From the IMG/VR virus record IMGVR_UViG_3300006226_000002: a DNA stretch of 53,137 bases; one strand, 5' to 3'. Numbering within the stretch: position 1 is the first letter of the stretch; each line of letters opens with the position of its first letter. The notes below the pieces were generated by a model that saw nothing but the letters and a program-made list of their open reading frames with translations, was not told the DNA's origin and ran no database searches. Below, piece after piece: positions 2,847 through 52,086 of this stretch. The DNA comes from a virus. A program made the translations under genes and the position numbers.

Positions 2847-3023
2847 ATGAAGCTTGCAGATATGATTGTATCCGCGATAATCAAAAGAGGAATCTTTTAT
2901 GAAGCAAGGAATGTCGATACGATATTTGATATTCCTGTGCAAAACGAAGGCACAGAGCAGATTATCAAGATACAGTTCAAAGCAGAACATATGTCAATCA
3001 AAGTAGATAAGACGGAGACTTAG
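2847..3023 (+). CDS. 58-aa early protein (below the ORF-track cutoff)
   Basis: ATG 2847 follows GAAAGGAGA. The stop TAG lies in a terminator loop. Confidence 0.45.
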   Translation: MKLADMIVSAIIKRGIFYEARNVDTIFDIPVQNEGTEQIIKIQFKAEHMSIKVDKTET

Positions 3024-3060
3024 GTCTCTTTCTTTTTAGGAGTTTAGACTCCTTTTCTTT
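3015..3060 (+). terminator. Tandem hairpin terminators (GAGAC-TTAG-GTCTC and AGGAGT-TTAG-ACTCCT)
   Basis: Two consecutive stem-loops, each followed by a T-run. Confidence 0.55.
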
Positions 3061-3090
3061 ATGTTTTATCTTGAAAGGAGAAATCACCAT

Positions 3091-3882
3091 ATGGAAACAA
3101 AAGGAATTGTAAAAGTCGCAAAAAACCTCGGGGGAGTAATTTCCAAAAACAGTCCTACTATCTTGACTGTTTGCGCTGTTGGCGGGTTGGTTACGACTGC
3201 GATATTTGCGGTTAAGGCTACTCCGAAAGCTTTGCTCTTATTGGAAGAAGAGCAAAAAGAAAGGTGGGAAGAAAGATATGAGCATGAAGATGGATGGAGG
3301 CCAAACGACCTCACAGCTCTCGATGTTGTACGAATCACTTGGAAATACTATATCCCAGCTGGCGCAATCGGTCTCGCAAGTATCGCGTGTATTATCGGAG
3401 CTAATCACATCAGCCTTCGGCGTAACGCAGCGCTCGCAAGTGTGTATACCATCACAGAAGCCGCATTCAAGGAATATCAGGCCAAGGTCGCCGAAACGAT
3501 TGGACGTAACAAAGAGCTCAAAGTGCGCGATGAAATCTCCGGTGATCGTATCAAAAAGAATCCACCGGGTTCAAACGAGGTAATATTTACTGGAAAAGGA
3601 GAAGTCTTGTGTTACGATAGCTTGAGTGGGCGATATTTTAAGTCCAATATTGAACATATACGCCGGTCTGTCAACGAGTTAAACAAGCAATTCCTTACTG
3701 ATATGTGGATGAGCGTTAATGATTTATATTATGCGCTCGGATTAGCAGGAACAAAACTCGGTGACGAAATAGGTTGGGATCTTGATAAAGGGCTTCTCGA
3801 AATTCAATTCAACACACAACTTACAGTTGATGACGAGCCTTGTTTAGTTCTTAATTACGACATAATGCCGAAATTTATATAA
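3091..3882 (+). CDS. Membrane protein, paralogue A of 10692-11609
   Basis: ATG follows GAAAGGAGAAATCACC. It shares TM1, a [10 protein letters not shown] TM2 and a helical region with the 10692 ORF. Confidence 0.6.
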   Translation: [263 protein letters not shown]

Positions 3883-3901
3883 AGGAGGGTTGTAAACAGA
3901 T

Positions 3902-4090
3902 ATGGAGGATAGACTTATATGTAATAATTGTACTCATCAACATGTTTGTGTGCATAAAGACGAGTATTACCTCACACATGATGCATTTATGGAGAAACTG
4001 TCCGAAGCGCCGGTGCCATTCAAGCTCAATCTTCGCTGTAAGTATTTCAAAGAAGCGAAGCCAAAGTTATCACTGCGACTGCTGATTTAA
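3902..4090 (+). CDS. Small Cys-rich protein
   Basis: AAGGAGGG RBS. Contains CNNC..H..C.H. Confidence 0.45.
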   Translation: MEDRLICNNCTHQHVCVHKDEYYLTHDAFMEKLSEAPVPFKLNLRCKYFKEAKPKLSLRLLI

Positions 4091-4170
4091 TCTTCGGTAA
4101 ACCCTTGCACTATTCACCAAACTCCTGAAAAGGGGTTATTCTTTATGCTTGAAAGGAGAAGTTCTCACCA

Positions 4171-5076
4171 ATGTTTTGGAATCGGAAAAAGAAAACCAAA
4201 GAAAAACCCAAGCCCAAACCAAAACAATCCGCCCCTATACCAAAGAAACCGCACATAACTCCAAGTCCTACTCCCCCACCTAAGTTTGATAAACCTAAGG
4301 CTTCTGTTCCGCCTGTAGCCCAAAAAGTCTCCCGCGAACCACCAAGAGCGCCTCCCACAGCACACCTGGAACCAGAAAGAGAGTTTATGCGGATATTTAA
4401 GCGTCTTACATATCGGCATAGAGCATGGGATATTTGGAAGGACTTTGTTGTGATGTTTGCCTGCGCTTTGTCAAATCCTGTGGACAAGGCTCATTATAAT
4501 GAGCGTGAAGAGCTTTATATGAAAACCATCAAGAAGTATATAAAGCAGGAACAAAACATGTTTCCGGATCTTGTAGCTCAAACGGTCATGGCGTTGGAGT
4601 TGAATCCAGAACAAGACTTTTTAGGTAAAATCTACATGGATCTCAACCTCGGAAACGAGCGTGGAGGCCAATTCTTCACGCCGTATTGTGTTTGTGATAT
4701 GATGGTTAAAATTTCGTTGGGCGATGTAGTATCACACGTTGAGGAAGAAGGATATATAACCGTTAATGATCCATGTTGTGGTGCTGGTGCGACCTTGATT
4801 GCTGGAATTCATGAGGCCAAAAGGCAACTGGAAAAAGTAAAGCTTAATTTTCAAAACCATATACTTGTCGTTGGACAGGAAATTGACTTTACTACAGCGC
4901 TTATGTGCTACATTCAACTGTCTCTCCTCGGGGTGGCCGGATACATTAAGATTGGAAATACGCTAACCGACCCCATGACTTCATCTGATACATTGGAGAA
5001 CTATTGGTTTACTCCGATGTATTTTTTTGATGTTTGGAGTACAAGACGTCTTTTAAGAGGAAGAAACCTTTTGTGA
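4171..5076 (+). CDS. HsdM/N6-adenine methyltransferase-like protein lacking motif IV, with a Pro/Lys-rich N-terminus
   Basis: GQFFTP, NDPCCGAGATL (motif I) and VVGQEID (motif II) are present. No NPPF/Y motif occurs before the stop. Confidence 0.6.
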   Translation: MFWNRKKKTKEKPKPKPKQSAPIPKKPHITPSPTPPPKFDKPKASVPPVAQKVSREPPRAPPTAHLEPEREFMRIFKRLTYRHRAWDIWKDFVVMFACALSNPVDKAHYNEREELYMKTIKKYIKQEQNMFPDLVAQTVMALELNPEQDFLGKIYMDLNLGNERGGQFFTPYCVCDMMVKISLGDVVSHVEEEGYITVNDPCCGAGATLIAGIHEAKRQLEKVKLNFQNHILVVGQEIDFTTALMCYIQLSLLGVAGYIKIGNTLTDPMTSSDTLENYWFTPMYFFDVWSTRRLLRGRNLL

Positions 5077-5094
5077 AAGTGAGGCAAATTAGCG

Positions 5095-5409
5095 ATGACT
5101 AGAACAGTATTAAACAAGTGGCACGATGTAATTAACGAAGGTGACATGTACCCAACTTACACACGGGATAGCTGGGAGATACCCGTAGACGGTACCGAGA
5201 TATGGTGTACAGGTTGGAAAAGAGGCCAGACCATTAAGCCTTATGGAGACGGAATGCACGTTATCGTCGGAAGCGAAGTCTATCATAACGACCAGTTGAT
5301 GGGGATTCTTGATAGATGGGTTTCTGATGGCGAAACATGGGGGATTGAAGGCGTGAAAATGATACGAGAACAGCGGATAAATGGTATATGGGAGAAGGTG
5401 GATAAATGA
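5095..5409 (+). CDS. Hypothetical protein
   Basis: ORF packed tightly against its neighbours. Confidence 0.55.
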   Translation: MTRTVLNKWHDVINEGDMYPTYTRDSWEIPVDGTEIWCTGWKRGQTIKPYGDGMHVIVGSEVYHNDQLMGILDRWVSDGETWGIEGVKMIREQRINGIWEKVDK

Positions 5410-5645
5410 GCAATTTACACCGTGAAGTATGGGAGGGATGGACGCCGCAGAATTTTATCGATGCTCTTTCTGGCGAAATTGACATGATTATGTCTGGAGG
5501 ATCATGGAGAAAGCCTTTCGAAACAAAGAAGGAAATGATTGATTATATTATCGATCACCAACCGTACTACAAAAAATTAATCCCAGAAGTTAATAAGTAT
5601 TTTATAAACCGTTATAGCTTGAAAGGAGAAAACACCGATGCATAA
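5406..5645 (+). CDS. Hypothetical protein
   Basis: ATGA overlap with the upstream ORF. Confidence 0.55.
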   Translation: MSNLHREVWEGWTPQNFIDALSGEIDMIMSGGSWRKPFETKKEMIDYIIDHQPYYKKLIPEVNKYFINRYSLKGENTDA

Positions 5646-6387
5646 AACATTAATAAACGCCATCAATCTTTTGAAAAATGTGGTCACCCACGAAGGAACT
5701 CCAGAGGAAATCACTAAAGCAGCATCATATTTAACCGCTTGCGACGAATGTGCAAACATCCATGACCGATCATACGACGATAACAAAATTAGGATACTCG
5801 TCGAAAAATATTGTGACGAAGGCACTCCAAACCTCAATGCTTTAAATGGTGCAAAACGTTATAAAATCGGAGATGTTATCGACTTCACTCTTAATGATGG
5901 CGAGGAAGTTTCAGCCATGGCGGTTCGCCAGGATACGGACGGTATGGTCTTTATATTTGTCGATTGTCTTGCTAAGGAATATTCGATGAATGATAACAAT
6001 ATCAACGAAGGCGGCTATGAGAACTCCGATTTACGCTGGAGACTTAATAGTGAAATTCTTGATCGGCTCCCTTCTGAAATCAAGAACTCCCTAGTCAAGT
6101 TCGATAATGGCGACTATCTTAGGCTTCCAACAGAAAAAGAGATATTCGGTGAGAATCCATATGGTGAAAACGAGCCAAAAACCGTTGCTCAATTTGAACC
6201 GATGAAACTGCGCCGGAACAGAATCGCTTTCCAAGGAAAAGAGGGCGATTGGGAATGGTATTGGTTGCAAAATTCGGTAAAAGGTTCGGCTCCGCATTTC
6301 GCCCGTGTGAGTAGCCTTGGTTATGCGAATAGCACCGGTGCCTCGACCTCCCTTGGAGTCCGTCCTTGCTTAAAAATCAAATCCTAG
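5638..6387 (+). CDS. Second DGR variable protein (C-type-lectin-fold-like C-terminus, ..GVRPC..); contains VR2
   Basis: GAAAGGAGAAAACACC RBS. The 3' end matches the TR with adenine-only mismatches. Shares GGY.NS.LRWRLN and WYWL motifs with the tail target. Confidence 0.85.
   Translation: MHKTLINAINLLKNVVTHEGTPEEITKAASYLTACDECANIHDRSYDDNKIRILVEKYCDEGTPNLNALNGAKRYKIGDVIDFTLNDGEEVSAMAVRQDTDGMVFIFVDCLAKEYSMNDNNINEGGYENSDLRWRLNSEILDRLPSEIKNSLVKFDNGDYLRLPTEKEIFGENPYGENEPKTVAQFEPMKLRRNRIAFQGKEGDWEWYWLQNSVKGSAPHFARVSSLGYANSTGASTSLGVRPCLKIKS
6284..6372 (+). repeat. DGR variable repeat 2 (VR2)
   Basis: Gap-free alignment to TR 46719-46807. All 17 mismatches are at TR adenines. Confidence 0.85.
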
Positions 6388-6412
6388 CCCCCATAGTGGG
6401 GCGTTATCTTTT
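6387..6412 (+). terminator. GC hairpin GCCCC/GGGGC plus T-run, 15 nt downstream of VR2
   Basis: 5-bp GC stem at 6387-6402 followed by GTTATCTTTTT. Confidence 0.5.
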
Positions 6413-6429
6413 TAATAAGGAGATTGACT

Positions 6430-6648
6430 ATGGTTTGTAAACGATGCCAGGAATGTTCAGAAAAAGAAACCTGTGAATTTGTCAGGCAAACTCCGTTGAA
6501 AATCATACATCTTGAAGACACTGATCAGCCAAAATCCTATAAAGACCATACATATAAAATCGGGTATTTCGTAGGCGTTACGATCGGTCTATGTGTTACG
6601 GCCTGTTTAATCGCCGGAACAATTCGTTTTGTAATGTGGTTATTTTAG
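6430..6648 (+). CDS. Small protein with an N-terminal CxxC..C motif and a C-terminal TM helix
   Basis: ATG 6430 follows TAAGGAGA. Confidence 0.5.
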   Translation: MVCKRCQECSEKETCEFVRQTPLKIIHLEDTDQPKSYKDHTYKIGYFVGVTIGLCVTACLIAGTIRFVMWLF

Positions 6649-6663
6649 AAAAGGAGAAGCCAA

Positions 6664-6999
6664 ATGGATAAGATGAAGATCATCGCATGTGACTTCGATG
6701 GTACCCTAGCTACAAATGCATGGCCGGATATTGGAGAACCTATATTTGAGACCATTATAAGGCTTAAACAGGAGCAAGAAAACGGCGCAAGAATTATTCT
6801 ATGGACAAATCGCGTCGGTATACCGCTTCAGAATGCAATTGATTGGTGTACTAATCATAACATTCAATTCGATGCCATCAACGAAAATCTTCCTAATATC
6901 ATTGAATCTTTCGGAGGAGATCCAAGAAAAATATTTGCTAATGAATATTGGGACGATCGTATGGTGTTTCTTTCCCATTTGAAGCATCCGGATAAATGA
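6664..6999 (+). CDS. HAD-superfamily hydrolase/nucleotidase-like protein
   Basis: IIACDFDGTL matches HAD motif I (DxDxT). Small single-domain size. Confidence 0.55.
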   Translation: MDKMKIIACDFDGTLATNAWPDIGEPIFETIIRLKQEQENGARIILWTNRVGIPLQNAIDWCTNHNIQFDAINENLPNIIESFGGDPRKIFANEYWDDRMVFLSHLKHPDK

Positions 7000-7000
7000 A

Positions 7001-7054
7001 TTCGCGTGAATTACACGCCATATAATGAAACCTAAAATTGAAAGGAGAATTACG
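7001..7054 (+). promoter_or_regulatory. Early promoter-like cassette, copy 5
   Basis: TTCGCG at 7001-7006 and TATAAT at 7021-7026. Confidence 0.5.
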
Positions 7055-7231
7055 ATGAACATTATGGACATCATCAACGAAAACAGAGGAGTCATTATTA
7101 AAAGAGGTTTAATCGCATTAGGCGCGGTTGCAGGCTTAACAATAGTCAGTAAAGCCCTATTCGAGAGAAATCGTGATGACTACGAGCAAGAAGATGATAC
7201 AGATGGATTCGACGATTCGGAAGAAGAATAA
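7055..7231 (+). CDS. Small membrane protein with an acidic tail
   Basis: ATG 7055 follows GAAAGGAGAAT. Contains LIALGAVAGLTIV. Confidence 0.5.
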   Translation: MNIMDIINENRGVIIKRGLIALGAVAGLTIVSKALFERNRDDYEQEDDTDGFDDSEEE

Positions 7232-7364
7232 AATAGGCGACATAGAAGAGCGGTATTAAGGAAACTTAGTATCGCTTTTTTATTGTCTGAATTTAGAAAC
7301 TTTATGAAAGGAGAAATCACTATGTGACATAGATCACTTTGGTAATTAAGGAGGAAAGAGCACG

Positions 7365-8081
7365 ATGACGAAAATAGAACGACAGGAAATGAACAAGCGC
7401 ATTTACTACTTAGGCATATTACTGATTGCATTACTTTTTATCTCATTTTTATCGCTTGTTGTAAAAAGTATCAGTATTTATCAAACGTACAAACAAACCG
7501 AGCCGGCTATATTTACGCCGACCATAGCGGCCATCGAAGCTCCAATCACAACGGAAAAAATAGAGCTTACATCATACGCAGAAGCAAAACATCCATGTTA
7601 TTTGGGTTATCAAAAAGGGTTCGAGCATAGCTCTTTACATTGGGGTGAATGCACACGCTGCGGAGAATTTATTCCACGTTACGGTTTCACCGAAGAAGAG
7701 ATATATTTGCTGGCTCAACTGTTATGCGGTGATGAAAAAATTGATGGAGACGGCGAATATGATTTTGCTTGGTTTCCTGTTTACGGCATGGACATTCGCT
7801 ACGATCAGATTAGCCTTGTATTAAATGTTGTAATGAATCGTGTGCGTTCAGAGCATGGTGGCAACGCAACTGTTACGGACGTAGTATTAGCAAGCGGGCA
7901 ATTTCATGTTTTTCCACGCAACTTAAATACTACTCCCGCAGAGATCGCGATAGAAAAAGTTCGTGAATGGTGTGAAGCTTATGATAGATGGGATCCTGGA
8001 GTGCAGAGCATACCGGAGAACCATCTATATTTTTGCGCCGGGCCAGACCTTACGAACGTTTCAAGGGAACATTGGAGATAA
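7365..8081 (+). CDS. SleB-like cell-wall hydrolase with an N-terminal TM anchor
   Basis: LLAQLLCGDE...VVMNRVRS...VVLASGQFHVF resembles the Hydrolase_2/SleB pattern. TAAGGAGGAAAG RBS. Confidence 0.55.
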   Translation: MTKIERQEMNKRIYYLGILLIALLFISFLSLVVKSISIYQTYKQTEPAIFTPTIAAIEAPITTEKIELTSYAEAKHPCYLGYQKGFEHSSLHWGECTRCGEFIPRYGFTEEEIYLLAQLLCGDEKIDGDGEYDFAWFPVYGMDIRYDQISLVLNVVMNRVRSEHGGNATVTDVVLASGQFHVFPRNLNTTPAEIAIEKVREWCEAYDRWDPGVQSIPENHLYFCAGPDLTNVSREHWR

Positions 8082-8130
8082 ATACGATGATGAAAGGCGA
8101 AAAGTAGGCGCAGATATTCTGGTTGTTAGG

Positions 8131-8180
8131 TTCTTTTATAATTTTCCGTACGCAGGTTACGTAAATCTGCGATATTATTG
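8131..8180 (+). promoter_or_regulatory. TATAAT plus conserved hairpin/operator element, copy 1 (CGCAG-GTTACGTAAAT-CTGCG)
   Basis: About 46 of 50 nt match 52081-52130. TATAAT at 8137-8142 and the TTACGTAA palindrome at 8157-8164. Confidence 0.5.
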
Positions 8181-8192
8181 TGGAGGTTTAAT

Positions 8193-8435
8193 ATGCACAA
8201 GAAGACTTTTGAGCTCGTAGAGTTTGACGGAGAAATCGACGAGATGTTAGGCGATGATTACGTACAAGTCCCGTCAGAACATCAGGCCGAAGCAGCGGAA
8301 CGCATACAATCTGGTAATCCGAAAGTCGATATTCGCGGCAAAACCCCTCTATCCGAGTGGGCCAGAGGGGTTAAGGGCGCCAACCGCAAGGAAAGACGAG
8401 CTGAGGCTAAGCGGATCCGTAAGGCGTTTAAGTAA
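8193..8435 (+). CDS. Hypothetical basic-tailed protein
   Basis: ATG 8193 follows TGGAGG. Confidence 0.5.
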   Translation: MHKKTFELVEFDGEIDEMLGDDYVQVPSEHQAEAAERIQSGNPKVDIRGKTPLSEWARGVKGANRKERRAEAKRIRKAFK

Positions 8436-8447
8436 ATGCTCTTCTAT

Positions 8448-8503
8448 CTCGCTAGAATAACTTAGCCTATTATGAAACAGAAATTTGAAAGGAGTAACTC
8501 ACC
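8448..8503 (+). promoter_or_regulatory. Early promoter-like cassette, copy 6 (TATTAT variant)
   Basis: CTCGCT at 8448-8453 and TATTAT at 8468-8473. Confidence 0.45.
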
Positions 8504-8779
8504 ATGAAAAAACTAGAGCTGCTAAAGACAGGGGCGTCTTTGGTCGTTTCCGTTGGAGTAGGAGCCATTGTAGGTAATGTTGTGAAATGCACGACTCCGG
8601 ACGATGTAAAAAAAGTAACAAAGGTTTGCATCGGAGTTGGAAGTCTTGTGTTAACAAGTATTGCTGGAGATATGGCTGCTAAGTACACGGAGGAGAAAAT
8701 TGACGCGGCAGTTAATGCGGTGAAAGGTCTTATTGAAGAGGAGATATCTGACGAACAAGTATCTGTGGAGGAAGCTTAG
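8504..8779 (+). CDS. Small membrane protein
   Basis: GAAAGGAGTAACTCACC RBS. Two hydrophobic segments. Confidence 0.55.
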   Translation: MKKLELLKTGASLVVSVGVGAIVGNVVKCTTPDDVKKVTKVCIGVGSLVLTSIAGDMAAKYTEEKIDAAVNAVKGLIEEEISDEQVSVEEA

Positions 8780-8793
8780 GCTTCTTCTTTTTA
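8769..8793 (+). terminator. Hairpin terminator GAAGC-TTAG-GCTTC plus T-run (family member)
   Basis: Stop TAG 8777-8779 lies in the loop. Confidence 0.5.
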
Positions 8794-8813
8794 TATTGAA
8801 AGGAGAAATCACC

Positions 8814-9044
8814 ATGAGAAAAATTAGACTTGTTATTGGCGGCGTATTCCTCACTGGAATGGCTTTCATATCAGGAGCTCGATGGATGCATCGGCTTCAC
8901 GAATTAGCGACGGATCAGTGTATGGAAAAACGCATTGAGACACGTAAAAATCCAAACGGAAAGACAGTAATCGTTGAAGATTCACGTGTTCGTCATTACG
9001 CTGGATATATTCCCAAAGAAAGGATGGCACAAAACAATGTCTGA
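8814..9044 (+). CDS. Small membrane protein
   Basis: ATG 8814 follows GAAAGGAGAAATCACC. Contains LVIGGVFLTGMAFISGA. Confidence 0.5.
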   Translation: MRKIRLVIGGVFLTGMAFISGARWMHRLHELATDQCMEKRIETRKNPNGKTVIVEDSRVRHYAGYIPKERMAQNNV

Positions 9045-10691: not shown

Positions 10692-11609
10692 ATGAAATTC
10701 GAAAAAATTGGTAATGCTCTGTCTAAACTAACTGGTCGGACAGGTTTGACTTTGAAAAAACATAGTCCTGAAATCTTGCTTGTCGTGGGGATAACCGGCA
10801 CCGTGGCATCGGCCGTCTTAGCCTGCCGCGCAACGCTAAAATGTGAGGCAGTCCTTGACAATGCGAAAGAAAAATTCGAGAAAATTAAGGAATGCAAACA
10901 GCTTAATAGCGGAATCGTGGAAGACGACCGTGAAGTATATTCCGAGCTTGATTATCGCAAAGACATAACCGTAGCCTATGTGCAAACAACTGTGGATTTC
11001 ATCAAACTATATGGTCCGGCCGTAAGCCTTGGTGTGGCGTCAATTGCATGTATCATCGGTGGTCATGGAATCATGAAAAAGCGCAATGTCGCTCTTATGG
11101 CAGCTTATAAGGCTGTAGAAGAAGGATTTAACGCTTATCGTAAGCGCGTAATCGAGGAGTACGGCGAAGAGAAGGATTACATGTATAAAAACGGACTCAG
11201 AGCCGAAGAAATTATTGATCTTGAAGTTGACGAAAGTGGTAAAGCAAAGAAAGTCAAGAAACAGAAGCTCGTAGAAGATCCGAACGGGCTGAGTGTTTAT
11301 GCCAAATTCTTCGATGAAAGCTGTAGTCAGTGGTCTAAGACACCGGAATATAACATGCTTTTCCTCAAAGCCCAGCAGAATTATTTCAATGATATGCTAA
11401 AAGCCAGAGGGCATGTCTTCTTGAACGAGGTCTATGACGCAATCGGCATTCCCAGAACTCAGGCCGGAGCTGTCGTAGGTTGGGTCTTTGGTGAAGGCGA
11501 TAATTTCGTCGACTTCGGTTTCTCTAATAACGCCGACTTCGTAAACGGCTATGAAAGAAGCGTGCTGCTCGACTTCAACGTTGATGGCGTCATTTATGAC
11601 ATGATTTGA
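10692..11609 (+). CDS. Membrane protein, paralogue B of 3091-3882
   Basis: Shares GVASIACIIGGHGIMKKRNVALMAAY..A..EGF..YR.RV with 3091-3882. Confidence 0.6.
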   Translation: MKFEKIGNALSKLTGRTGLTLKKHSPEILLVVGITGTVASAVLACRATLKCEAVLDNAKEKFEKIKECKQLNSGIVEDDREVYSELDYRKDITVAYVQTTVDFIKLYGPAVSLGVASIACIIGGHGIMKKRNVALMAAYKAVEEGFNAYRKRVIEEYGEEKDYMYKNGLRAEEIIDLEVDESGKAKKVKKQKLVEDPNGLSVYAKFFDESCSQWSKTPEYNMLFLKAQQNYFNDMLKARGHVFLNEVYDAIGIPRTQAGAVVGWVFGEGDNFVDFGFSNNADFVNGYERSVLLDFNVDGVIYDMI

Positions 11610-14913: not shown

Positions 14914-17900
14914 ATGGATTTCTATCAAATCATAGAAAATTGGTCTCAAAGTAAGATGGCAACAGAGATTTATCCGGATTTCATAGTAAAACGTTCAAAG
15001 GATTTGATGATTCGTGGGAGATCATTCTATGCAATATGGGACGCCGAGAATAAAATATGGTCGACCGACGAGTACGACGTTCAAAGATTGGTCGATTCAG
15101 AACTAGAAGATTATAAAAAACTCCAAGAAGAGAAGTACCCAGGACAAAAATATGTTATTAAGCGAATGAGTAACTTCTCATCAAAGATGTGGACAAATTT
15201 TAAAACCTATCTTACGCAGATGTCAGATAACTCCCATCAGCTCGATGAGAACCTAACCTTTGCAAACGATAAGATGAGAAAGATTGACTATATAAGCAGA
15301 TTTCTACCGTACCCATTAGAAAAAGGCGCGTTCGAAGCCTACGACGAAATAATGAGTACTTTATATGACCCTGGAGAGCGTGCGAAGCTTGAATGGGCTA
15401 TAGGCGCAATCGTCGCTGGAGAGGCTAAATATATTCAGAAATTTATTGTGCTATACGGAGAAGCAGGGAGTGGAAAGTCAACCTTTTTAAATATTGTGCA
15501 AAAACTCTTTCCCGGATATTACACGATGTTTGAAGCTAAGGCGTTGACTGGCAGTAATAATACGTTTTCGACGGAACAATTCAAGACTAATCCTTTGATC
15601 GCCATTCAACATGACGGAGACCTCTCGCGAATCGAGGACAACACTAAGTTAAACTCAATAGTTTCCCACGAGGAGATGGCGATGCGAGAGTTGTATAAAC
15701 CGTCATATACAGCTCGCTCGAATGCTTTCTTATTTATGGGTACGAACAAACCTGTAAAGATTACGGATGCGAAATCAGGAATAATACGCAGGCTTATAGA
15801 CGTAAAGCCTAGTGGAAACAAGGTACTTACTCAGCGCTATCATACCTTGATGTCTCAAATCGATTTTGAGCTTGGCGCAATAGCATATCATTGTCTCCAT
15901 GTGTATAGAAGCATGGGTAAAAATTATTATGCGTCTTATAGACCTTTGGAGATGATGTTTCAAACAGACGTGTTCTTTAATTTTGTTGAGGCAAGCTATC
16001 ATGTATTTAAGGAGCAAGATGGAGCTAACCTTAAGCAAGCTTATGATATGTATAAAGTGTATTGCGATGAAGCTCTTGTCGAGTTCAAACTTCCGCGTCA
16101 TAAATTTAGGGAAGAGTTGAAGTCGTATTTCAAAGTGTTTTCTGATTATACCCGCGTTGATGGGAAGCAAATACGCAGCTATTATAGTGGGTTTATTTCT
16201 GATAAGTTTACAGCAAGCGAGCCAGTTAAGGAAGAAAAACCAATCTCACTAGTTCTTGATAGCAATACCTCTATACTTGATGACCTGCTGGCGGATCGTC
16301 CGGCCCAGTACGCAACGGTTGTAAGTGAAATACCAGAGGGTAAATGGGTTGATGTTAAAACAAAACTATCGGATCTAAAAACTAAGGAGCTTCACTATGT
16401 AAAACCCCCTACCCAACATATTGTAATCGACTTCGATTTGAAAAATGGTTCTGGAGAAAAATCTTTAGAATTAAATCTCGAAGCCGCAAGTGCCTGGCCG
16501 TCCACTTATGCTGAGCTTAGCAAAGGGGGGGCCGGTATTCATTTGCATTACATATATGATGGAGATGTAAGTAAACTTAGCCGTGTGTATTCTGATGGAA
16601 TCGAAATCAAAGTATTCACGGGAAAAAGTTCGCTAAGGCGTAGGCTCACTAAATGTAACAACATCCCTGTCGCCACTATAAATAGCGGGCTCCCTTTGAA
16701 AGGAGAAAAACCAGTGATTAATTTTGATACTGTTCAAAGCGAGAAAAGTCTTCGCGATCTCATATCTCGAAATCTCAAGAAAGAGATTCATCCAGGAACA
16801 AAACCAAGTGTCGACTTCATTTGGAAAATTCTCGATGATGCATATAAATCTGGACTTCACTATGATGTTACCGATATGCGTCCGAAAATTCTTTCCTTTG
16901 CAAACAACTCAACAAACCAGTCAGATTACTGTATCAAGCTTGTTAATAAGATGCAGTTCGCCTCCGACGAGATAAGTAGTACTGTTTCGGAATATGATAG
17001 CGAGGAATTAATATTCTTCGATGTTGAAGTATTCCCGAATCTATTTGTTGTTGTCTGGAAGAAAGCCGGCGGGCAGAAAGTCAAGATGTTTAACCCGTCT
17101 CCACAAGATATGGAGGAACTCTTTAAGTTCAGACTCGTTGGATTCAATTGCCGGCGTTATGATAATCATATCTGCTATGCAAGATATATTGGATATGATA
17201 ACAGGAAGCTCTTTGAGCTCAGTCAGAGAATTATCAATAATAGCAGGAATGCGATGTTTGGTGAGGCCTATAATCTGTCTTACACAGATGTCTATGATTT
17301 TGCTTCAGCCGGAAATAAGATGAGTCTTAAAAAATGGGAAATTAAACTAGGGATTCATCATCAAGAGCTTGGTCTTCCCTGGGAAGAGGATGTTCCGGAA
17401 GAGCTATGGGATAAAGTTGCAGATTATTGCGGAAACGATGTTGATGCAACAGAAGCAACCTTCAACCATCTTTCTGGAGACTGGGCAGCTAGGCAAATTC
17501 TTGCGGCACTTAGTGGATTATCTGTTAATGATACCACCAATCAGCATACCATTAAGATTGTATTCGGTGATGAAAAGAAACCACAAAGCCAGTTTGTCTA
17601 CACTGATCTAAGTGAGATGTTCCCCGGATATAAGTTCGAGAATGGAGTTAGTACTTATCGTGGTGTTGTTGTCGGCGAGGGTGGCCGAGTCTATGCAGAA
17701 CCAGGAATGTACACCAACACTCCGGTTCTTGACGCAGTATCCATGCATCCAACAAGTATTGAGCAGCTAAATTTGTTTGGTCCTTATACCAAGAATTTCA
17801 GCGATCTTAAGCTTGGTCGAGTTTCAATCAAGCATAAGGATTATGAGACATTAAAAACCCTGCTCAATGGTAAACTTGTCCCCTTCATCGAAGATGCTCT

Positions 17901-18909
17901 CGGACAGAATCCGAAATTCACCCTCAAAGATGTCTCAAACGGACTCAAAACAGCAATTAATTCAGTATACGGACTTACCTCGGCAAGCTTTGAGAATCCA
18001 TTCAGAGACCCTAGGAACATTGACAACATCGTTGCTAAACGCGGAGCTCTATTTATGGTGGATCTTCAATTCGCAGTTCAGGAGAAGGGGTTTACAGTTG
18101 CTCACATCAAGACCGACTCCATCAAGATTCCCGATGCGACTCCAGAAATTATTGAGTTCGTTTATGAGTTCGGTAAGAAGTATGGGTATGAGTTTGAGCA
18201 TGAGGAAACATATGAGAAATTCTGTCTAGTAAACGATGCGGTCTATATTGCAAAAATTGGTTGGCATGCCGAAAAGGAATTTATTGGAACATGGACTGCT
18301 ACAGGAGCGCAATTTGCGCAGCCATATGTATTTAAAACTTTATTCTCTCATGAGCCCATAGTGTTTGGTGATATGTGCGAGACTAAAACCGTTACCTCGG
18401 CATTGTATCTCGACATGAACGAAGGTCTTGGAGAGGATGAACATAACTATCACTTCGTTGGTAAAGCCGGTTCATTCTGTCCGATTAAGCCAGGATGTGG
18501 CGGTGGACTTCTTCTTCGTGAGAAGGATGGAAAATACTATGCCGCTACAGGAAGTAAGGGTTATCGATGGCTTGAAGCAGAGATGGTTTCAAATCTTGGG
18601 AAGGAGGACGATATAGACCGCAATTACTACATTGGTCTAGTCGACTCTGCTGTCAAAGATATTTCTGTATTCGGAGACATTGAATGGTTCATCGGGGACA
18701 AAGAGATAGAGATCGATTATCCAATCGGCTTCAACGATACTCCTCCATGTGGTAATACCATAACTTGTTTGGAATGTTCGTTAAGTCCGGAATGTGCCTT
18801 GTATGAAAAGATGCTCTTAGACTGCTCGGATAAAGAGGAGCCTAAGCGAATGTATCCTTCTTGTGAAGAATGCCCTCATTTAGTTTCATGTCCAGGTCTA
18901 CCATTTTAA
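14914..18909 (+). CDS. Fusion replicase: SF3/P4-type helicase, AEP primase-like domain, and family-B DNA polymerase with 3'-5' exonuclease
   Basis: Walker A YGEAGSGKST (about 15457). AEP-like IVIDFD and GGAGIHLHY (about 16420-16550). Exo I FFDVEVFPN, Exo II RRYDNH, Exo III YCGNDVD. PolB motifs: A LDAVSMHPTS, B KTAINSVYG, C HIKTDSI. Cys-rich C-terminus. Confidence 0.8.
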   Translation: MDFYQIIENWSQSKMATEIYPDFIVKRSKDLMIRGRSFYAIWDAENKIWSTDEYDVQRLVDSELEDYKKLQEEKYPGQKYVIKRMSNFSSKMWTNFKTYLTQMSDNSHQLDENLTFANDKMRKIDYISRFLPYPLEKGAFEAYDEIMSTLYDPGERAKLEWAIGAIVAGEAKYIQKFIVLYGEAGSGKSTFLNIVQKLFPGYYTMFEAKALTGSNNTFSTEQFKTNPLIAIQHDGDLSRIEDNTKLNSIVSHEEMAMRELYKPSYTARSNAFLFMGTNKPVKITDAKSGIIRRLIDVKPSGNKVLTQRYHTLMSQIDFELGAIAYHCLHVYRSMGKNYYASYRPLEMMFQTDVFFNFVEASYHVFKEQDGANLKQAYDMYKVYCDEALVEFKLPRHKFREELKSYFKVFSDYTRVDGKQIRSYYSGFISDKFTASEPVKEEKPISLVLDSNTSILDDLLADRPAQYATVVSEIPEGKWVDVKTKLSDLKTKELHYVKPPTQHIVIDFDLKNGSGEKSLELNLEAASAWPSTYAELSKGGAGIHLHYIYDGDVSKLSRVYSDGIEIKVFTGKSSLRRRLTKCNNIPVATINSGLPLKGEKPVINFDTVQSEKSLRDLISRNLKKEIHPGTKPSVDFIWKILDDAYKSGLHYDVTDMRPKILSFANNSTNQSDYCIKLVNKMQFASDEISSTVSEYDSEELIFFDVEVFPNLFVVVWKKAGGQKVKMFNPSPQDMEELFKFRLVGFNCRRYDNHICYARYIGYDNRKLFELSQRIINNSRNAMFGEAYNLSYTDVYDFASAGNKMSLKKWEIKLGIHHQELGLPWEEDVPEELWDKVADYCGNDVDATEATFNHLSGDWAARQILAALSGLSVNDTTNQHTIKIVFGDEKKPQSQFVYTDLSEMFPGYKFENGVSTYRGVVVGEGGRVYAEPGMYTNTPVLDAVSMHPTSIEQLNLFGPYTKNFSDLKLGRVSIKHKDYETLKTLLNGKLVPFIEDALGQNPKFTLKDVSNGLKTAINSVYGLTSASFENPFRDPRNIDNIVAKRGALFMVDLQFAVQEKGFTVAHIKTDSIKIPDATPEIIEFVYEFGKKYGYEFEHEETYEKFCLVNDAVYIAKIGWHAEKEFIGTWTATGAQFAQPYVFKTLFSHEPIVFGDMCETKTVTSALYLDMNEGLGEDEHNYHFVGKAGSFCPIKPGCGGGLLLREKDGKYYAATGSKGYRWLEAEMVSNLGKEDDIDRNYYIGLVDSAVKDISVFGDIEWFIGDKEIEIDYPIGFNDTPPCGNTITCLECSLSPECALYEKMLLDCSDKEEPKRMYPSCEECPHLVSCPGLPF

Positions 18910-18930: not shown

Positions 18931-19419
18931 ATGGTTAAAAACAATATCGTACTCGAGGGAGCTCGCATTGGTTTTCGCAACTTCAGTGGAAAAGAGGGGA
19001 AATTTAATCCCGCCGGAAGGCGTAACTTCTGCGTCTTCCTAGAAGAAGATCTTGCTAAAGCTCTTGAAGAAGATGGTTGGAATGTCCGTTGGCTTCAACC
19101 AAGAGATGAGCAAGAAGAGCCTCAGGGATATATTCAAGTAGCTGTCAGCTATGACAATATTCCTCCGAAAATAATTTTAATTACCTCTAGAGGAAAGACG
19201 ACGCTTGATGATGAGTCCATATCACTATTAGATTGGGCCGAAATCACAGACGTCGATCTTATCATTCGCCCGTATAATTGGGACGTCAACGGTAAGTCCG
19301 GAGTTAAGGCGTATGTAAAATCGATGTACATAACTCTCGCCGAAGATGAATTCGAGAAGAAGTACTACGATGTTCCCGACAGCGCCGAAAATCTTATCGG
19401 AGAACAAGATGGCGATTGA
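18931..19419 (+). CDS. Putative ssDNA-binding protein with an acidic C-terminal tail
   Basis: It sits between the polymerase and the helicase. Acidic tail EDEFEKKYYDVPDS..EQDGD. The fold is not verified. Confidence 0.4.
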   Translation: MVKNNIVLEGARIGFRNFSGKEGKFNPAGRRNFCVFLEEDLAKALEEDGWNVRWLQPRDEQEEPQGYIQVAVSYDNIPPKIILITSRGKTTLDDESISLLDWAEITDVDLIIRPYNWDVNGKSGVKAYVKSMYITLAEDEFEKKYYDVPDSAENLIGEQDGD

Positions 19420-20632
19420 GCTTTATGAGCATCAAAAAATCGCTATAGAGAAGCTGAAGACCGGCTCCATCCTATGTGGTGGGGTCGGCTCCGGCAAATC
19501 TCGCACCGCACTTGCTTATTATTTTATAAAGGAATGTGATGGTAAAATTAAAATAAATAACACGGGTGGATACTCCGCGATGAAGAAGCCTAAAGATCTT
19601 TATATTATTACTACGGCTAGAAAGCGTGATGAGCTCGATTGGGAACGAGAGTGTTGTCCCTTTCTCCTCTCAACAAATAAAGAGGTTAACATTGACGGAG
19701 TTGGCGTTGTAGTTGATTCTTGGAATAATATCAATAAATACAAAGATGTAAAACATGCCTTTTTTATTTTCGATGAGCAGCGAGTTGTCGGATCTGGCGC
19801 TTGGGTAAAATCATTTCTTAGAATTTGTCAAAGTAATAATTGGATTTTACTAACCGCCACACCAGGGGATACTTGGACTGACTATATACCGGTTTTCATA
19901 GCAAATAGATTCTATAAAAATAGAACCGAATTTATTCGCCGACATGTGGTGTATAGTAACTTCTCCAAGTTTCCAAAGATAGACCGTTATGTTGAAGTAA
20001 CAAGGCTTGTTCGCTTTCGTGACCAAATAATTGTTAATATGCGTTTTAAAAAGAACACCATAGCTCATGATAAAACTATTATTACTGAATTTGATAGAGA
20101 TCTTTTTAATGTGGCCATGGTAAAAAGATGGCATCCTTATGAAAATCGCCCAATCAAAGATATCAGTGAACTATGTTATGTATTACGGCGTATTGTTAAT
20201 ACCGATCCGTCAAGACTTGGAGCTATAAGGGCGCTCTCTGAAAAACATCCTCGTCTTATAATATTTTATAACTTTAATTATGAATTAGATCTTCTTCTCA
20301 AATTAGGAAAGGAGTTGAATATACCAACGACCCAATGGAACGGCCATAAGCATGAACAAATTCCAGTTACAGAATCTTGGTTGTATTTAGTTCAATATAT
20401 GGCTGGAGCAGAAGCATGGGAATGCATTGAAACAGATGCGATGATATTTTATTCGCAAAACTATTCTTATAAAATGATGATTCAAGCAGCAGGAAGAATT
20501 GATCGGATGAACACTCCATTCACCAATTTATATTATTACTATCTTCGATCTATGTCGGTCATAGATTTAGCAATTCAAAAAGCACTGAAAAATAAACGCA
20601 GTTTTAATGAGCATCGCTTTCTTAATGTTTAA
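19409..20632 (+). CDS. SF2 (DEAD/SNF2-like) helicase
   Basis: YEHQ..A, GGVGSGKS (Walker A), FIFDEQR (DExx), LLTATPG. Confidence 0.7.
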   Translation: MAIELYEHQKIAIEKLKTGSILCGGVGSGKSRTALAYYFIKECDGKIKINNTGGYSAMKKPKDLYIITTARKRDELDWERECCPFLLSTNKEVNIDGVGVVVDSWNNINKYKDVKHAFFIFDEQRVVGSGAWVKSFLRICQSNNWILLTATPGDTWTDYIPVFIANRFYKNRTEFIRRHVVYSNFSKFPKIDRYVEVTRLVRFRDQIIVNMRFKKNTIAHDKTIITEFDRDLFNVAMVKRWHPYENRPIKDISELCYVLRRIVNTDPSRLGAIRALSEKHPRLIIFYNFNYELDLLLKLGKELNIPTTQWNGHKHEQIPVTESWLYLVQYMAGAEAWECIETDAMIFYSQNYSYKMMIQAAGRIDRMNTPFTNLYYYYLRSMSVIDLAIQKALKNKRSFNEHRFLNV

Positions 20633-26405: not shown

Positions 26406-28154
26406 ATGAGTTTATCAAATACGGCCACTCCGAGATACTACGCTAAATTCCGGGAGGAAGTTCTTAGCGGACACATTCCAGTATGCAAAGAGATCTCAAT
26501 GGAAATGAATCGTATAGATGATCTCATAGCTAATCGAGGAATCTATTACGATGAGGATGCAGTTGAAGGCTTTATCGAGTATTGCGAGTGCGAACTTACT
26601 CTTACGGATGGCGCCGATTTAATACTTCTTGATACTTTTAAACTTTGGGCAGAGCAGGTATTTGGCTGGTATTACTTTGTGGAGAGAAGTGTGTATGAAC
26701 CGGATCCGGATGGTCATGGTGGTCGCTATGTCCGTAAGATGGTCAAGAAACGTCTAATCAATAAACAATACCTGATTGTTGCTCGCGGTGCTGCTAAGTC
26801 AATGTACGGCTCATGTATTCAGAATTACTTTCTCAATGTCGACACATCGACCACGCATCAAATCACTACAGCGCCGACAATGAAGCAAGCAGATGAAGTG
26901 ATGTCGCCAATACGTACCGCTATCACCCGCTCCAGAGGGCCACTCTTTCAGTTCTTAACAGAGGGATCCTTACAGAACACAACCGGTTCCAGAGCCAATC
27001 GAGTAAAACTCGCCTCTACAAAGAAGGGTGTCGAGAACTTCCTCACAGGCTCACTCCTCGAGATCCGTCCAATGTCCATCGACAAGCTTCAAGGACTCAG
27101 GCCAAAGATTGCTTCAGTTGACGAATGGCTTTCTGGCGACATACGAGAAGATGTCGTCGGCGCCATCGAGCAAGGCGCATCAAAGCTTGATGACTACTTA
27201 ATCATCGCGATGAGCTCGGAGGGAACAGTTCGGAATAGTAGCGGCGATACCATCAAAATGGAACTAATGGACATTCTCAAAGGGGACTATATCAATCCTC
27301 ATGTTTCTATTTGGTATTACAGACTTGACGATGTTCAGGAAGTGAGCGATCCCTCTAAGTGGTTGAAAGCAAATCCCAACCTTGGAAAGACAGTTACCTA
27401 CGAAACTTATCATTTGGATGTCGAAAGAGCGGAAAAAGCTCCTGCGGCACGCAACGATATTCTTGCTAAGAGGTTTGGAATTCCCATGGAAGGGTACACC
27501 TACTTCTTTACATATGAAGAAACTCTTCCTCATCGAAGAAGAGATTTCTGGTCAATGCCTTGTGCTCTTGGCGCCGACCTTTCTCAGGGCGATGACTTTT
27601 GTGCTTTTACTTTTCTCTTCCCTTTACCACAAGACAAGTTTGGCGTTAAGACTAGATGCTATATTTCATCGCTTACTTTGATGAAATTGCCCGGCGCTAT
27701 GCGTATAAAGTACGATGAGTTTATTGCAGAGGGATCCTTAATGGTACTTGATTGTACTGTCCTTGACATGATGGATGTCTACGATGACCTTGACAAGTTT
27801 ATCAACGAGGAATGTCAGTATGATGTTCGCTGTTTTGGGTTTGATCCTTACAATGCAAAGGAGTTTGTAACGCGCTGGGAACAGGAAAATGGCTCCTATG
27901 GAATTGAAAAGGTTATTCAGGGCTCCAAAACCGAATCGGTCCCTTTGGGAGAGCTTAAAACACTTTCTGAGGAGCGAATGCTCATCTTTGACCAAGAACT
28001 TATGTCTTTTACTATGGGTAACGCTATTACTTTGGAGGATACAAATGGTAATCGCAAGTTATTAAAGAAGCGTTATGACCAAAAGATCGACAGTGTTGCG
28101 GCGATGATGGATGCTTATGTCGCCTATAAAGCAAACAAAGACGCATTTGAATAG
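26406..28154 (+). CDS. terL: Terminase large subunit
   Basis: 582 aa. ARGAAKS P-loop-like motif. Conserved position before the portal. Confidence 0.8.
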   Translation: MSLSNTATPRYYAKFREEVLSGHIPVCKEISMEMNRIDDLIANRGIYYDEDAVEGFIEYCECELTLTDGADLILLDTFKLWAEQVFGWYYFVERSVYEPDPDGHGGRYVRKMVKKRLINKQYLIVARGAAKSMYGSCIQNYFLNVDTSTTHQITTAPTMKQADEVMSPIRTAITRSRGPLFQFLTEGSLQNTTGSRANRVKLASTKKGVENFLTGSLLEIRPMSIDKLQGLRPKIASVDEWLSGDIREDVVGAIEQGASKLDDYLIIAMSSEGTVRNSSGDTIKMELMDILKGDYINPHVSIWYYRLDDVQEVSDPSKWLKANPNLGKTVTYETYHLDVERAEKAPAARNDILAKRFGIPMEGYTYFFTYEETLPHRRRDFWSMPCALGADLSQGDDFCAFTFLFPLPQDKFGVKTRCYISSLTLMKLPGAMRIKYDEFIAEGSLMVLDCTVLDMMDVYDDLDKFINEECQYDVRCFGFDPYNAKEFVTRWEQENGSYGIEKVIQGSKTESVPLGELKTLSEERMLIFDQELMSFTMGNAITLEDTNGNRKLLKKRYDQKIDSVAAMMDAYVAYKANKDAFE

Positions 28155-44838: not shown

Positions 44839-45678
44839 ATGCGAATTCAAGATTATCCAAGAGTGCAAGTTCTTGATCCGAACAACATCTTTATTATTGA
44901 TGGTCCGGACGGAACAAAAAGCGTTACCTTCAACGACTTGCAAAGAGCATTGAATCCAGAGGTTGCGGCCGCGATAACGGTTGAAATGCATCGCAACACA
45001 TTTAGGGGTAAACATCTCGGGACTGTTGTGTCGACCCTTCAGCGAAATAACATTATTAATGGTACCTTCGAAGATCTATTTGTTGGCGATTATTGGGTTA
45101 TTGGTGGAATAACCTGGCGAATTGTAGACATCAACTACTGGAAAGGTTGCGGCGATACGGAATTCACAGACAACCATCTTGTAATTATGCCTGACGATCA
45201 GCTTTACGCGGCACAGATGAACGCCACAAACATCACAACCGGAGGGTATCCTGGCTCAGCTATGCGGACTGCTAATCTTGCTGCGGCAAGGACGACGATC
45301 CAATCGGCATTCGGTTCCATGCTTAAGACAAAGCGTGCGCTATTTGAGAACGCGGTTACGAACGGAAGACCTTCTGCCGGCGCCTGGGTTGATTCAGACA
45401 TCGATTTACCGAATGAAATCAATATGTATGGAAGCTTCATATTTAGACCCGCAAACGATGGAACAACAATTCCTTATAATTACACCATCGACAAGTCACA
45501 GTTTGCCTTAATGAAACTTGTACCAAGGTTTATCATTACAAGCCCGACAAGGCGTAGCTGGTGGTTAAGGGATGTCGTTTCGGCTGCGTATTTCGCCTAT
45601 GTGCATAGCCTTGGTCATGCGGCTTACGCCGGTGCCTCGACCTCCATTGGAGTCCGTCCTTGCTTTGCTATTGGTTAA
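44839..45678 (+). CDS. DGR variable tail-fibre/receptor-binding protein (C-type-lectin-fold-like); contains VR1
   Basis: The 3' end matches the TR with A-only mismatches. Ends ..WWLRD..GASTSIGVRPCFAIG. Confidence 0.85.
   Translation: MRIQDYPRVQVLDPNNIFIIDGPDGTKSVTFNDLQRALNPEVAAAITVEMHRNTFRGKHLGTVVSTLQRNNIINGTFEDLFVGDYWVIGGITWRIVDINYWKGCGDTEFTDNHLVIMPDDQLYAAQMNATNITTGGYPGSAMRTANLAAARTTIQSAFGSMLKTKRALFENAVTNGRPSAGAWVDSDIDLPNEINMYGSFIFRPANDGTTIPYNYTIDKSQFALMKLVPRFIITSPTRRSWWLRDVVSAAYFAYVHSLGHAAYAGASTSIGVRPCFAIG
45579..45669 (+). repeat. DGR variable repeat 1 (VR1)
   Basis: 91-nt gap-free alignment to TR 46720-46810. All 19 mismatches are at TR adenines. Confidence 0.9.
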
Positions 45679-45681
45679 TCT

Positions 45682-45698
45682 GCGGAGCTTGTCTCCGC
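45682..45698 (+). promoter_or_regulatory. GC hairpin GCGGAG-CTTGT-CTCCGC, 13 nt downstream of VR1
   Basis: 6-bp GC-rich stem with no following T-run. Its position is analogous to DGR target-recognition hairpins. Confidence 0.45.
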
Positions 45699-46083: not shown

Positions 46084-46221
46084 ATGAGCGATAGGTATGA
46101 ACTCGTAAAAGGCTACTATGACGATGGTCTTTGGACCGAAGCACAGGTTCGCAACGCCGTCGTAAAAGGATGGATTACGGAAGAGGAGTTTAAAACGATA
46201 ACCGGAAATACATATAGATGA
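46084..46221 (+). CDS. XkdX-family small protein (45 aa, below the ORF-track cutoff)
   Basis: YELVKGYYDDGLWTEAQVRNAVVKGWITEEEFKTITG matches the XkdX pattern. AGGAGG RBS. Confidence 0.6.
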   Translation: MSDRYELVKGYYDDGLWTEAQVRNAVVKGWITEEEFKTITGNTYR

Positions 46222-46712: not shown

Positions 46713-46719
46713 GTGTGCG

Positions 46720-46810
46720 TTCGGCTACGAATTTCGCCAATGTGAATAACAATGGTAATGCGAATAACAACAGTGCCTCGAACTCCAATGGAGTCCGTAC
46801 TTGATTAGCT
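46720..46810 (+). repeat. DGR template repeat (TR)
   Basis: 28 adenines by my count. Read in the VR frame it encodes SATNFANVNNNGNANNNSASNSNGVRT, with 11 AAY codons. Confidence 0.9.
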
Positions 46811-46922
46811 CTATTACAAATAGGGATAAGGAGATGCCGTCCTTTCCTGCTTTTAGCAAGGATAAATAACAAAGCCGATGCGATTTACTACGGTAACTAT
46901 TGCTATTACGGTGAATAATTTT

Positions 46923-52058: not shown

Positions 52059-52086
52059 AAGGAGTCTAACCTAGCTTAGGCTCTTT
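52059..52086 (+). terminator. Hairpin terminator
   Basis: GAGTCTAA/TTAGGCTC stem (one G-U pair), a 6-nt loop and a T-run. Confidence 0.45.

Follow-up and report, generated by a model that had tools for sequence, protein, structure and literature searches.

A second, remote target of a phage diversity-generating retroelement, encoded outside the virion module

The IMG/VR virus record IMGVR_UViG_3300006226_000002 (53,137 nucleotides; we call this whole stretch of DNA the window) carries a diversity-generating retroelement (DGR) beside its tail genes. We find that the open reading frame (ORF) at 5638-6387, far from that element, is almost certainly a real target of the phage's single DGR, in addition to a target in the tail module. 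We propose that its product is a soluble protein in which a DUF6273 lectin-like domain presents about 12 randomized surface residues. Our favored reading, to which we assign a probability of roughly 0.6, is that this is a non-virion protein, a diversified binder made in the infected cell rather than a tail component. Both the two-target architecture and the non-structural reading have published precedents and are not novel; the window is a clean further example of a known DGR architecture and no new kind of system.

The template repeat and its two variable repeats

The DGR is complete, with an accessory protein (Avd), a template repeat (TR) and a reverse transcriptase (RT), and it is accompanied by two variable repeats (VR1 and VR2) within a pair of target genes. 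The features are listed here by coordinates and strand (aa, amino acids; nt, nucleotides).

46218-46712, plus strand: Avd accessory protein; phrog_3206 'Avd protein of DGR', E 1.2e-9
46719-46807, plus strand: TR; 28 adenines in 89 nt, with AAY codons at variable positions
46878-48146, plus strand: DGR reverse transcriptase, 422 aa; Pfam RVT_1, E 2.5e-16; motifs IGDQISQ and YMDD
6284-6372, plus strand: VR2; 17 substitutions relative to TR, all at TR adenines
45579-45666, plus strand: VR1; 19 substitutions at TR adenines
5638-6387, plus strand: VR2 target gene, 249 aa; strong ribosome-binding site AAAGGAG 9 nt upstream; Pfam DUF6273; phrog_21980
44839-45678, plus strand: VR1 target, 279 aa; last gene of the tail module, after Dit, Tal (Sipho_Gp37) and a virion structural protein
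6355-6371, plus strand: 3' end of VR2, GGAGTCCGTCCTTGCTT, identical in VR1; TR has GGAGTCCGTACTTGATT, different at two A positions
6387-6415, plus strand: GC-rich hairpin GCCCC-CATAGT-GGGGC (6387-6402, 15 nt past VR2) and a T-rich run
45682-45698, plus strand: GC-rich hairpin GCGGAG-CTTGT-CTCCGC, 15 nt past VR1, the counterpart of the VR2 hairpin

When VR2 (6284-6372) is compared with TR (46719-46807) without gaps, all 17 of its mismatches fall at TR adenines (hypergeometric P 2.8e-11). The VR1 copy (45578-45666) has 19 of 20 mismatches at adenines, the exception being a boundary base (G/T at 46719). A repeat finder independently recovers the same three-copy family, at 6285-6371, 45579-45665 and 46720-46806. 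Both VRs lie in frame at the 3' ends of their ORFs (5638-6387 and 44839-45678); VR2 ends 15 nt ahead of the stop codon at 6385-6387, and with the AAY-codon design of the TR no stop codons arise at the variable positions. The 3' end of the TR is 70 nt upstream of the RT start, and the RT motif IGDQISQ fits I/LGxxxSQ, the signature of DGR-type reverse transcriptases. For the Avd ORF (46218-46712), Pfam and NCBIfam gave no match.

Thirteen TR adenines carry changes in VR1 and VR2 alike, and five carry none; 46740, 46746, 46767 and 46787 are changed in VR2 alone, and adenines 46745, 46763, 46764, 46766, 46769 and 46807 in VR1 alone. An earlier note on this DNA had listed the 17 adenine mismatches and the repeat-specific positions, all of which were reproduced exactly on re-comparison, and the differing substitution lists bear out its claim of a second, remote target diversified separately from VR1. 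The same note had placed VR2 40.4 kb from the TR, or 12.6 kb the other way round. The repeat finder detected an exact 127-nt repeat at both ends of the window, and the genome is therefore a 53,010-bp circle on which the two are separated by 40,435 nt in one direction and 12,575 nt in the other, so these distances are correct.

We also considered whether VR1 and VR2 substitutions are correlated within a genome, as they might be through a shared ligand or shared complementary DNA (cDNA), and rejected this as a general property. A first count over five genomes found the same base in VR1 and VR2 at 27 of 46 co-mutated A sites, with a between-genome baseline of 0.37. Seven VR1/VR2 pairs of a single phage group were also compared; in four the two repeats share a contig, and in three they come from different contigs of the same sample, so that the pairing is only probable. 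Here the same base was found at 19 of 54 sites (0.35) versus 0.41 between genomes (P 0.84). The repeats are therefore effectively independent; Baykov et al. likewise report no shared VR pattern.

The 3' ends of VR (CCCGCTTTC) and TR (CCCGATTTC) differ in a way that is fixed in all related phages compared. In the Mtd DGR that Bordetella phage BPP-1 carries, an Avd-TR-RT cassette with adenine mutagenesis acts on a VR located at the 3' terminus of a target with a lectin fold; the repeat has a distinct 3' end with a downstream hairpin, and the single target is an adjacent structural protein, Mtd, which has N-terminal trimerization domains. The window DGR shares the cassette, the adenine mutagenesis, the 3' VR, the distinct repeat end and the hairpin, and differs in having two targets, one of them remote, and in that our structure and sequence searches yielded no match to Mtd. 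By analogy, the VR 3' end may be a marker like the initiation of mutagenic homing (IMH) element, setting the direction of homing, and together with the hairpins it would steer cDNA toward the VRs while shielding the TR. No GC hairpin was found downstream of the TR. The hairpin after VR2 also scores as a terminator, and may act as one, as a hairpin for DGR target recognition, or in both ways.

In the mechanism that we propose, the Avd-TR-RT cassette at 46.2-48.1 kb would produce adenine-mutagenized cDNA from the TR, and this cDNA would replace the last 29 codons of two genes that share the 3' end GGAGTCCGTCCTTGCTT and a GC hairpin. The recipients would be the tail-tip protein beside the cassette (VR1) and ORF 5638-6387, 12.6 kb away (VR2), each rewritten separately. 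Inside the infected cell, the VR2 product would then be expressed alongside early or accessory genes and serve as a diversified binder of a ligand. VR2 is probably still active.

The VR2 target protein and its family

The VR2 target ORF (5638-6387) is intact. Residues 114-249 of its product match Pfam DUF6273 (33.5 bits, with a cut-off of 23.5), and the protein matches phrog_21980, a family of unknown function, with E 3.2e-23. It has two parts:

5638-5820, plus strand: N-terminal helical module (residues 1-60), joined in this phage to the DUF6273 domain; a stand-alone protein of 74-81 aa in other phages
5860-6384, plus strand: DUF6273 (C-type-lectin-like) domain, residues ~75-249; a core common to ~1,500 database proteins

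The VR1 and VR2 targets are 31% identical over 174 residues (BLASTP E 8e-15) and both match Pfam DUF6273, while their N-terminal parts are unrelated, as expected from the earlier description of a scaffold held in common with the tail target and an unrelated N-terminal half. An AlphaFold2 (AF2) model built with 64 homologues has a mean predicted local distance difference test (pLDDT) score of 70, rising to 76-95 in core residues 75-190, and begins with three helices (residues 3-18, 22-40 and 48-60) followed by a linker. Foldseek matches of the model in BFVD are DUF6273 proteins, tail-collar fiber proteins among them. A profile search of PDB sequences with the VR2 target found nothing, Mtd included.

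A Kyte-Doolittle scan of the VR2 target showed no transmembrane or signal-like segment (maximum 19-residue mean 0.88), and positive controls in the window, namely the adjacent hydrolase, a PASTA protein and holin-like ORFs, scored 1.9-2.8; this agrees with the earlier observation that the protein lacks a signal peptide or transmembrane helix. By the same hydropathy heuristic, neither a signal peptide nor a hydrophobic N-terminus was seen in the VR2 target and 23 homologues, and the VR2 target has no signal peptide or lipobox of the kind that marks TvpA/LdtA-type targets. The VR1 tail target likewise has no signal peptide and scores the same in the scan.

A protein search with the VR2 target returned 1,506 homologues, most of them single-domain proteins of 186-206 aa that are 60-67% identical over residues ~75-249. 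Most members of the family are thus a bare domain, without an N-terminal domain. The scaffold is almost invariant and has about 12 free positions inside SAAxFAxVxxxGxAxxxxASxSxGVRP. One cluster at 90% identity comprises 1,790 distinct sequences, of which 14 sampled members differ almost only at the 12 VR positions. Scanning IMG/VR with a pattern derived from the TR gave 39 copies in one phage group. Within this group every VR1 and VR2 is unique, and the copies with TR flanks, in 12 contigs, keep all of their adenines (23 or 24) except in L015/L106. In 13 VR copies (12 VR2 and one VR1), mismatches to the TR occupy 179 of 299 A sites and 35 of 637 non-A sites. From the variation in the cluster and these TR/VR statistics, we conclude that early-module targets are diversified at scale in nature.

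Two unusual copies deserve mention. The copy at L015 672-743 (the same as L106 13444-13499, IMGVR_UViG_3300045988_053335) has TR-type flanks and the CCCGATTTC end, yet only 15 of its 23 template adenines are kept and eight are substituted; either mutagenized cDNA has overwritten a TR here or the assembly has joined TR and VR reads into a chimera. P0002, a 385-aa protein from a Logan contig of 25.4 kb, has two tandem DUF6273 domains, each ending in a VR-like segment and GVRP, and might be a double target in one protein.

The N-terminal helical module matches no known family. In a phmmer search of 1.8 billion representatives with residues 1-73, its only significant relatives were three: the stand-alone proteins P0149 and P0150 (74-81 aa, 63-67% identical) and the fusion P0003. 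The same search gave one weak match to an unrelated repetitive protein (E 7.8e-4). At locus L120, a gene for the stand-alone module lies two genes 3' of a 200-aa DUF6273 gene; this neighborhood, together with the fusion, indicates that the module and the DUF6273 protein are functionally linked.

Gene context in the window and in relatives

The VR2 target is the final gene of a tight, co-directional cluster led by a DNA methyltransferase, which lies two genes upstream of it by way of two small ORFs.

4171-5076, plus strand: N6-adenine DNA methyltransferase; Pfam N6_Mtase, E 1.9e-12; opens the cluster that ends with the VR2 target
5095-5645, plus strand: two small ORFs of 104 aa and 79 aa, bridging the methylase and the VR2 target

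The small ORFs (5095-5409 and 5406-5645) are coupled by an ATGA overlap, and the start of the VR2 target overlaps the stop of the second by 8 nt; family matches were looked for with both small ORFs and none was found. On the 3' side of the VR2 target follow a small membrane ORF, a gene with a weak cell-wall-hydrolase match (7365-8081) and a second DUF6353 gene, and further on a primase-polymerase (14914-18909) and a helicase (19346-20632). Beyond the tail module, which extends from 35 to 45.7 kb, come the DGR, small membrane ORFs of lysis type and a minus-strand integrase. We infer the 'early' status of the VR2 target from this position and from the operon structure. A consensus scan for a sigma-70 promoter of the cluster did no better than on shuffled sequence.

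To see where family genes sit elsewhere, we collected 80 IMG/VR loci through the homologue P0069 (the 249-aa protein as query gave one weak locus) and located marker genes within 5 kb by tblastn. The 80 loci are not independent; synteny types, of which there are at least six among the surveyed loci, are the better counting unit. A replication, recombination, methylase, nucleotide-metabolism or lysogeny marker was present in 74 of the 80, with methylase markers in 43 and Tad2-like genes in 12. In 12 loci a 'structural' marker was present, in every case a GP3_package gene where the late region begins, and in none of the 80 did the DUF6273 gene lie among tail genes. All eight contexts that we inspected individually, the window included, are early or replication modules. 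The neighbors of the family gene in relatives are:

L001: a DNA methylase and a 3D-domain gene
L002: Hjc, helicase, Tad2-like and ERF genes
L010: a helicase, then a methylase
L011/L012: a D5 primase
L013: the gene lies immediately past a repressor/Cro pair
Shimadzu: orf43, flanked by a methyltransferase and Erf
Fontainebleau: WAK78934, flanked by DNA polymerase I and a helicase

An early-module position is therefore not peculiar to one phage but characterizes the family as a whole. The earlier note had placed the VR2 target among early genes and not in the virion module; the second part of this statement stands across the family, and the word 'early' describes position. The survey also shows that the two-target architecture, for which the note had proposed looking in related phages, is found in Shimadzu, Fontainebleau and L010, in each of which the three-copy TR/VR1/VR2 layout with A-specific changes was confirmed.

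Cell-wall-hydrolase or 3D-domain genes are recurrent neighbors of the small DUF6273 gene: they occur in 27 of the 80 loci and as Shimadzu orf40, examples being window 7365-8081, L001 8342-8890 and L008 30548-31264. They are often accompanied by a DNA methylase, in the order HD, methylase, 3D, DUF6273. The hydrolase-like protein of the window (7365-8081) has an N-terminal membrane anchor.

Several other features of the early region were observed. A promoter-like element of ~50 nt occurs in six copies (811-861, 1796-1846, 2200-2250, 2789-2839, 6997-7047 and 8444-8494), each directly 5' of the start of a small ORF, with the layout TTTCGC, 15 nt, TATAATGAAA, ~10 nt, GAAAGGAG. It has no TTGACA-type -35 box, so a phage-specific factor may read it; no copy was found between 2839 and 6997, the interval that contains the VR2-target cluster. 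A terminator cassette (GAGGCTTAGGCCTC followed by a T run) occurs three times, at 1134-1177, 2430-2473 and 3015-3058, and breaks up transcription of the first 3 kb into very short units. A 51-nt repeat with 92% identity, including the hairpin CGCAGGTTACGTAAATCTGCG, lies after the hydrolase-like gene (8126-8176) and again in the region past the integrase (52076-52126), and could be a shared terminator or operator. Paralogous DUF6353 genes (3061-3882 and 10692-11609, E ~1e-81 each) flank the early accessory region.

Outside this region, the best matches of the large terminase (26406-28154) are actinophages, including phages of Rhodococcus and Streptomyces (ReqiPoco6, ClubPenguin) with ~80% protein identity, which did not help to assign a host; a match to the ReqiPepy6 Gp37 family was also obtained with the Tal protein. 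It is unusual for conservation to reach across phyla in this way: the genome has 42% GC and its accessory genes are similar to those of gut Firmicutes phages. The tape-measure gene contains 132-nt tandem repeats (window 40680-40943; also L009 29064-29327 and 29567-29830), and that of Fontainebleau has repeats of equal length. The tyrosine integrase (49372-50604, minus strand) has an N-terminal zinc-ribbon domain. Among GenBank phages, blastn of 3000-9000 returned one short unrelated match only, and this collection thus contains no close relative of the phage.

Possible roles of the remote target

The closest precedent is Shimadzu, for which Cornuault et al. (bioRxiv 10.1101/575076; ISME J 2020) described two VRs, the second in orf43 'of unknown function'. 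Sequencing reads showed both VRs to be mutagenized, in 2% of reads in vitro, with VR2 reaching 47% in mouse viromes; the position of orf43 is left undiscussed (bioRxiv 10.1101/575076). Orf43 is a homologue of the VR2 target (37% identity over 71% of the query) and, as in the window, VR1 is in a tail gene beside Avd and RT, VR2 is remote in the replication module, and changes are A-specific. Unlike the window phage, which has siphovirus-type tail genes, Shimadzu is a myovirus; the two show no DNA similarity (blastn of 3000-9000), and orf43 lacks the N-terminal helical module of the window protein.

In Quimbyvirus, Benler et al. 2021 (PMC8008677) found a second target distant from the structural module, among methyltransferases, and read it as non-structural and conflict-related, a hypothesis that the earlier note shares. 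By this description the layout resembles that of the window, with one target near tail genes and a distal lectin-type target among methyltransferases; the VR2 target has the same combination of distal VR and methyltransferase neighbor, N6_Mtase being in its own cluster. Quimbyvirus differs in its Bacteroides host, in a second target on the opposite strand (the same strand in the window) and in a frameshifted RT.

Faecalibacterium phages provide further cases. In Lelie and CP11 one DUF6273 target is large and the other small (PMC11792537). Cognate genomes differ at both VRs in CP11 and also in Lagaffe_CP, whose pair of targets is Mtd-like (PMC11792537). Toutatisvirus has a distal, core DUF6273 target of unknown function, 17.5 kb from the TR, which is assumed to be a receptor binder (bioRxiv 10.1101/2024.10.15.618418), and nd4/nd12 have a single-domain DUF6273 'tgt2' (PMC10743442). 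Lelie, CP11 and Toutatisvirus resemble the window in that a single TR is paired with two DUF6273 targets, each carrying its VR at the domain C-terminus; their proximal target is a Hoc-like protein or tentaclin, whereas that of the window is a tail-tip protein, and their authors favor a receptor-binding role. No genome relationship to the three was found by blastn of 3000-9000. A precedent for diversified intracellular, non-surface proteins comes from cyanobacterial DGR targets in STAND/conflict systems (PMC10907252), although these, by description, are cellular multidomain NTPase sensors, unlike small phage early proteins.

Gene position is the sole argument against a structural role for the VR2 target, and it is what leads us to favor a non-virion one. 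The VR2 target could plausibly act in conflicts of the phage with its host or with other phages. Counter-defense specifically, which the earlier note had raised as a possibility, is a more tentative suggestion, prompted by the methyltransferase neighbors here and by the methylases and Tad2-like genes in relatives. In the same tentative spirit, small early-module DUF6273 proteins might serve as a phage-side adaptive binder that captures variable host-defense or rival-phage proteins. The occurrence of at least six synteny types in early modules, the operon link to the methylase and the fusion to the helical module are compatible with such a binder, and none of them demonstrates it.

Several points weigh against our reading. 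One sequence of the window genome is known (cluster size 1), so the case for ongoing variation of its VR2 comes from homologues, and the early expression of the gene is read from gene order only. In the VR the AF2 model has low confidence (pLDDT <50), and Foldseek against the PDB gave no significant match to Mtd or TvpA, the lectin fold being taken from Pfam membership and the literature. The earlier note had moved from the lack of a signal peptide to a cytoplasmic effector. This step fails: virion proteins, including the VR1 tail target, also lack one, and because that target scores the same, the absence of a signal peptide cannot separate virion from non-virion proteins. Furthermore, DUF6273 also occurs in tail fibers, tentaclins and Hoc-like decoration proteins, and some authors assume that the small target is a receptor-binding protein (bioRxiv 10.1101/2024.10.15.618418; PMC10743442).

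These last points lend weight to the strongest alternative, less probable than our reading but a serious one, in which the VR2 target associates with the virion as an accessory receptor-binding protein or adhesin that is encoded off-module, docks on the tail or capsid via a partner and widens host or surface recognition as Mtd does. The tail target has the same domain and TR, DUF6273 is found in tail-collar fiber proteins and tentaclins, virion proteins too lack signal peptides, and the Toutatisvirus and nd4/nd12 authors assume this role. The VR2 target does not fit the profile of a receptor-binding tail protein, with a gene in the tail module and an N-terminal virion-attachment domain: its gene is placed among early genes, as in all surveyed relatives, and most family members have no N-terminal domain. 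This is still compatible with virion association through a partner protein. What argues against an adhesin is that the family gene is in a tail module in 0 of 80 loci and 0 of 8 inspected contexts (the window included), that it shifts among at least six positions which all lie within early or replication modules, that most family members lack an N-terminal anchor, and that the window gene is translationally coupled to the methylase cluster. Alternatively, the lectin-like domain without an anchor could be a soluble lectin, freed at lysis or by a non-classical route, that masks receptors on debris or neighboring cells or binds mucus or host glycans. A DGR-diversified DUF6273 tentaclin of Mushuvirus has been reported in a bacterial secretome (bioRxiv 10.64898/2026.05.08.723808), and the frequent hydrolase/3D-domain neighbors (27 of 80 loci, Shimadzu orf40, window 7365-8081) would suit release. 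We nevertheless consider this unlikely: a signal peptide was seen in 0 of 24 members checked, VR1 and VR2 are no more alike within than between genomes, which argues against a shared receptor, and there is no direct evidence for it.

Least probable of all, and in our judgment very improbable, is that VR2 is a fossil that was formerly targeted and is no longer rewritten in the window phage. Only a single genome sequence is known, and the VRs of Lelie showed no read-level variation in culture (PMC11792537). However, the window ORF is intact, VR2 has zero non-A mismatches, its 3' end is the same as that of VR1 and its hairpin is present; Avd and RT are intact ORFs with the expected family matches; and homologous VR2s are massively diversified, with that of Shimadzu experimentally active.

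Phage DGRs are usually explained by tail-fiber tropism switching. A diversified second target that is kept in the early or replication module of many unrelated gut phages suggests that the retroelement probably serves a further purpose. Such a purpose has already been remarked on in the literature, and our survey contributes the extension of the early-module position to the whole family. Because homologues are present in two cultured phages, Shimadzu (Roseburia intestinalis) and Fontainebleau (Acutalibacter muris), the choice between a virion and an intracellular location is directly testable. If the adaptive-binder reading is true, temperate gut phages would use one retroelement both for entry, at the tail tip, and for counter-defense inside the cell.

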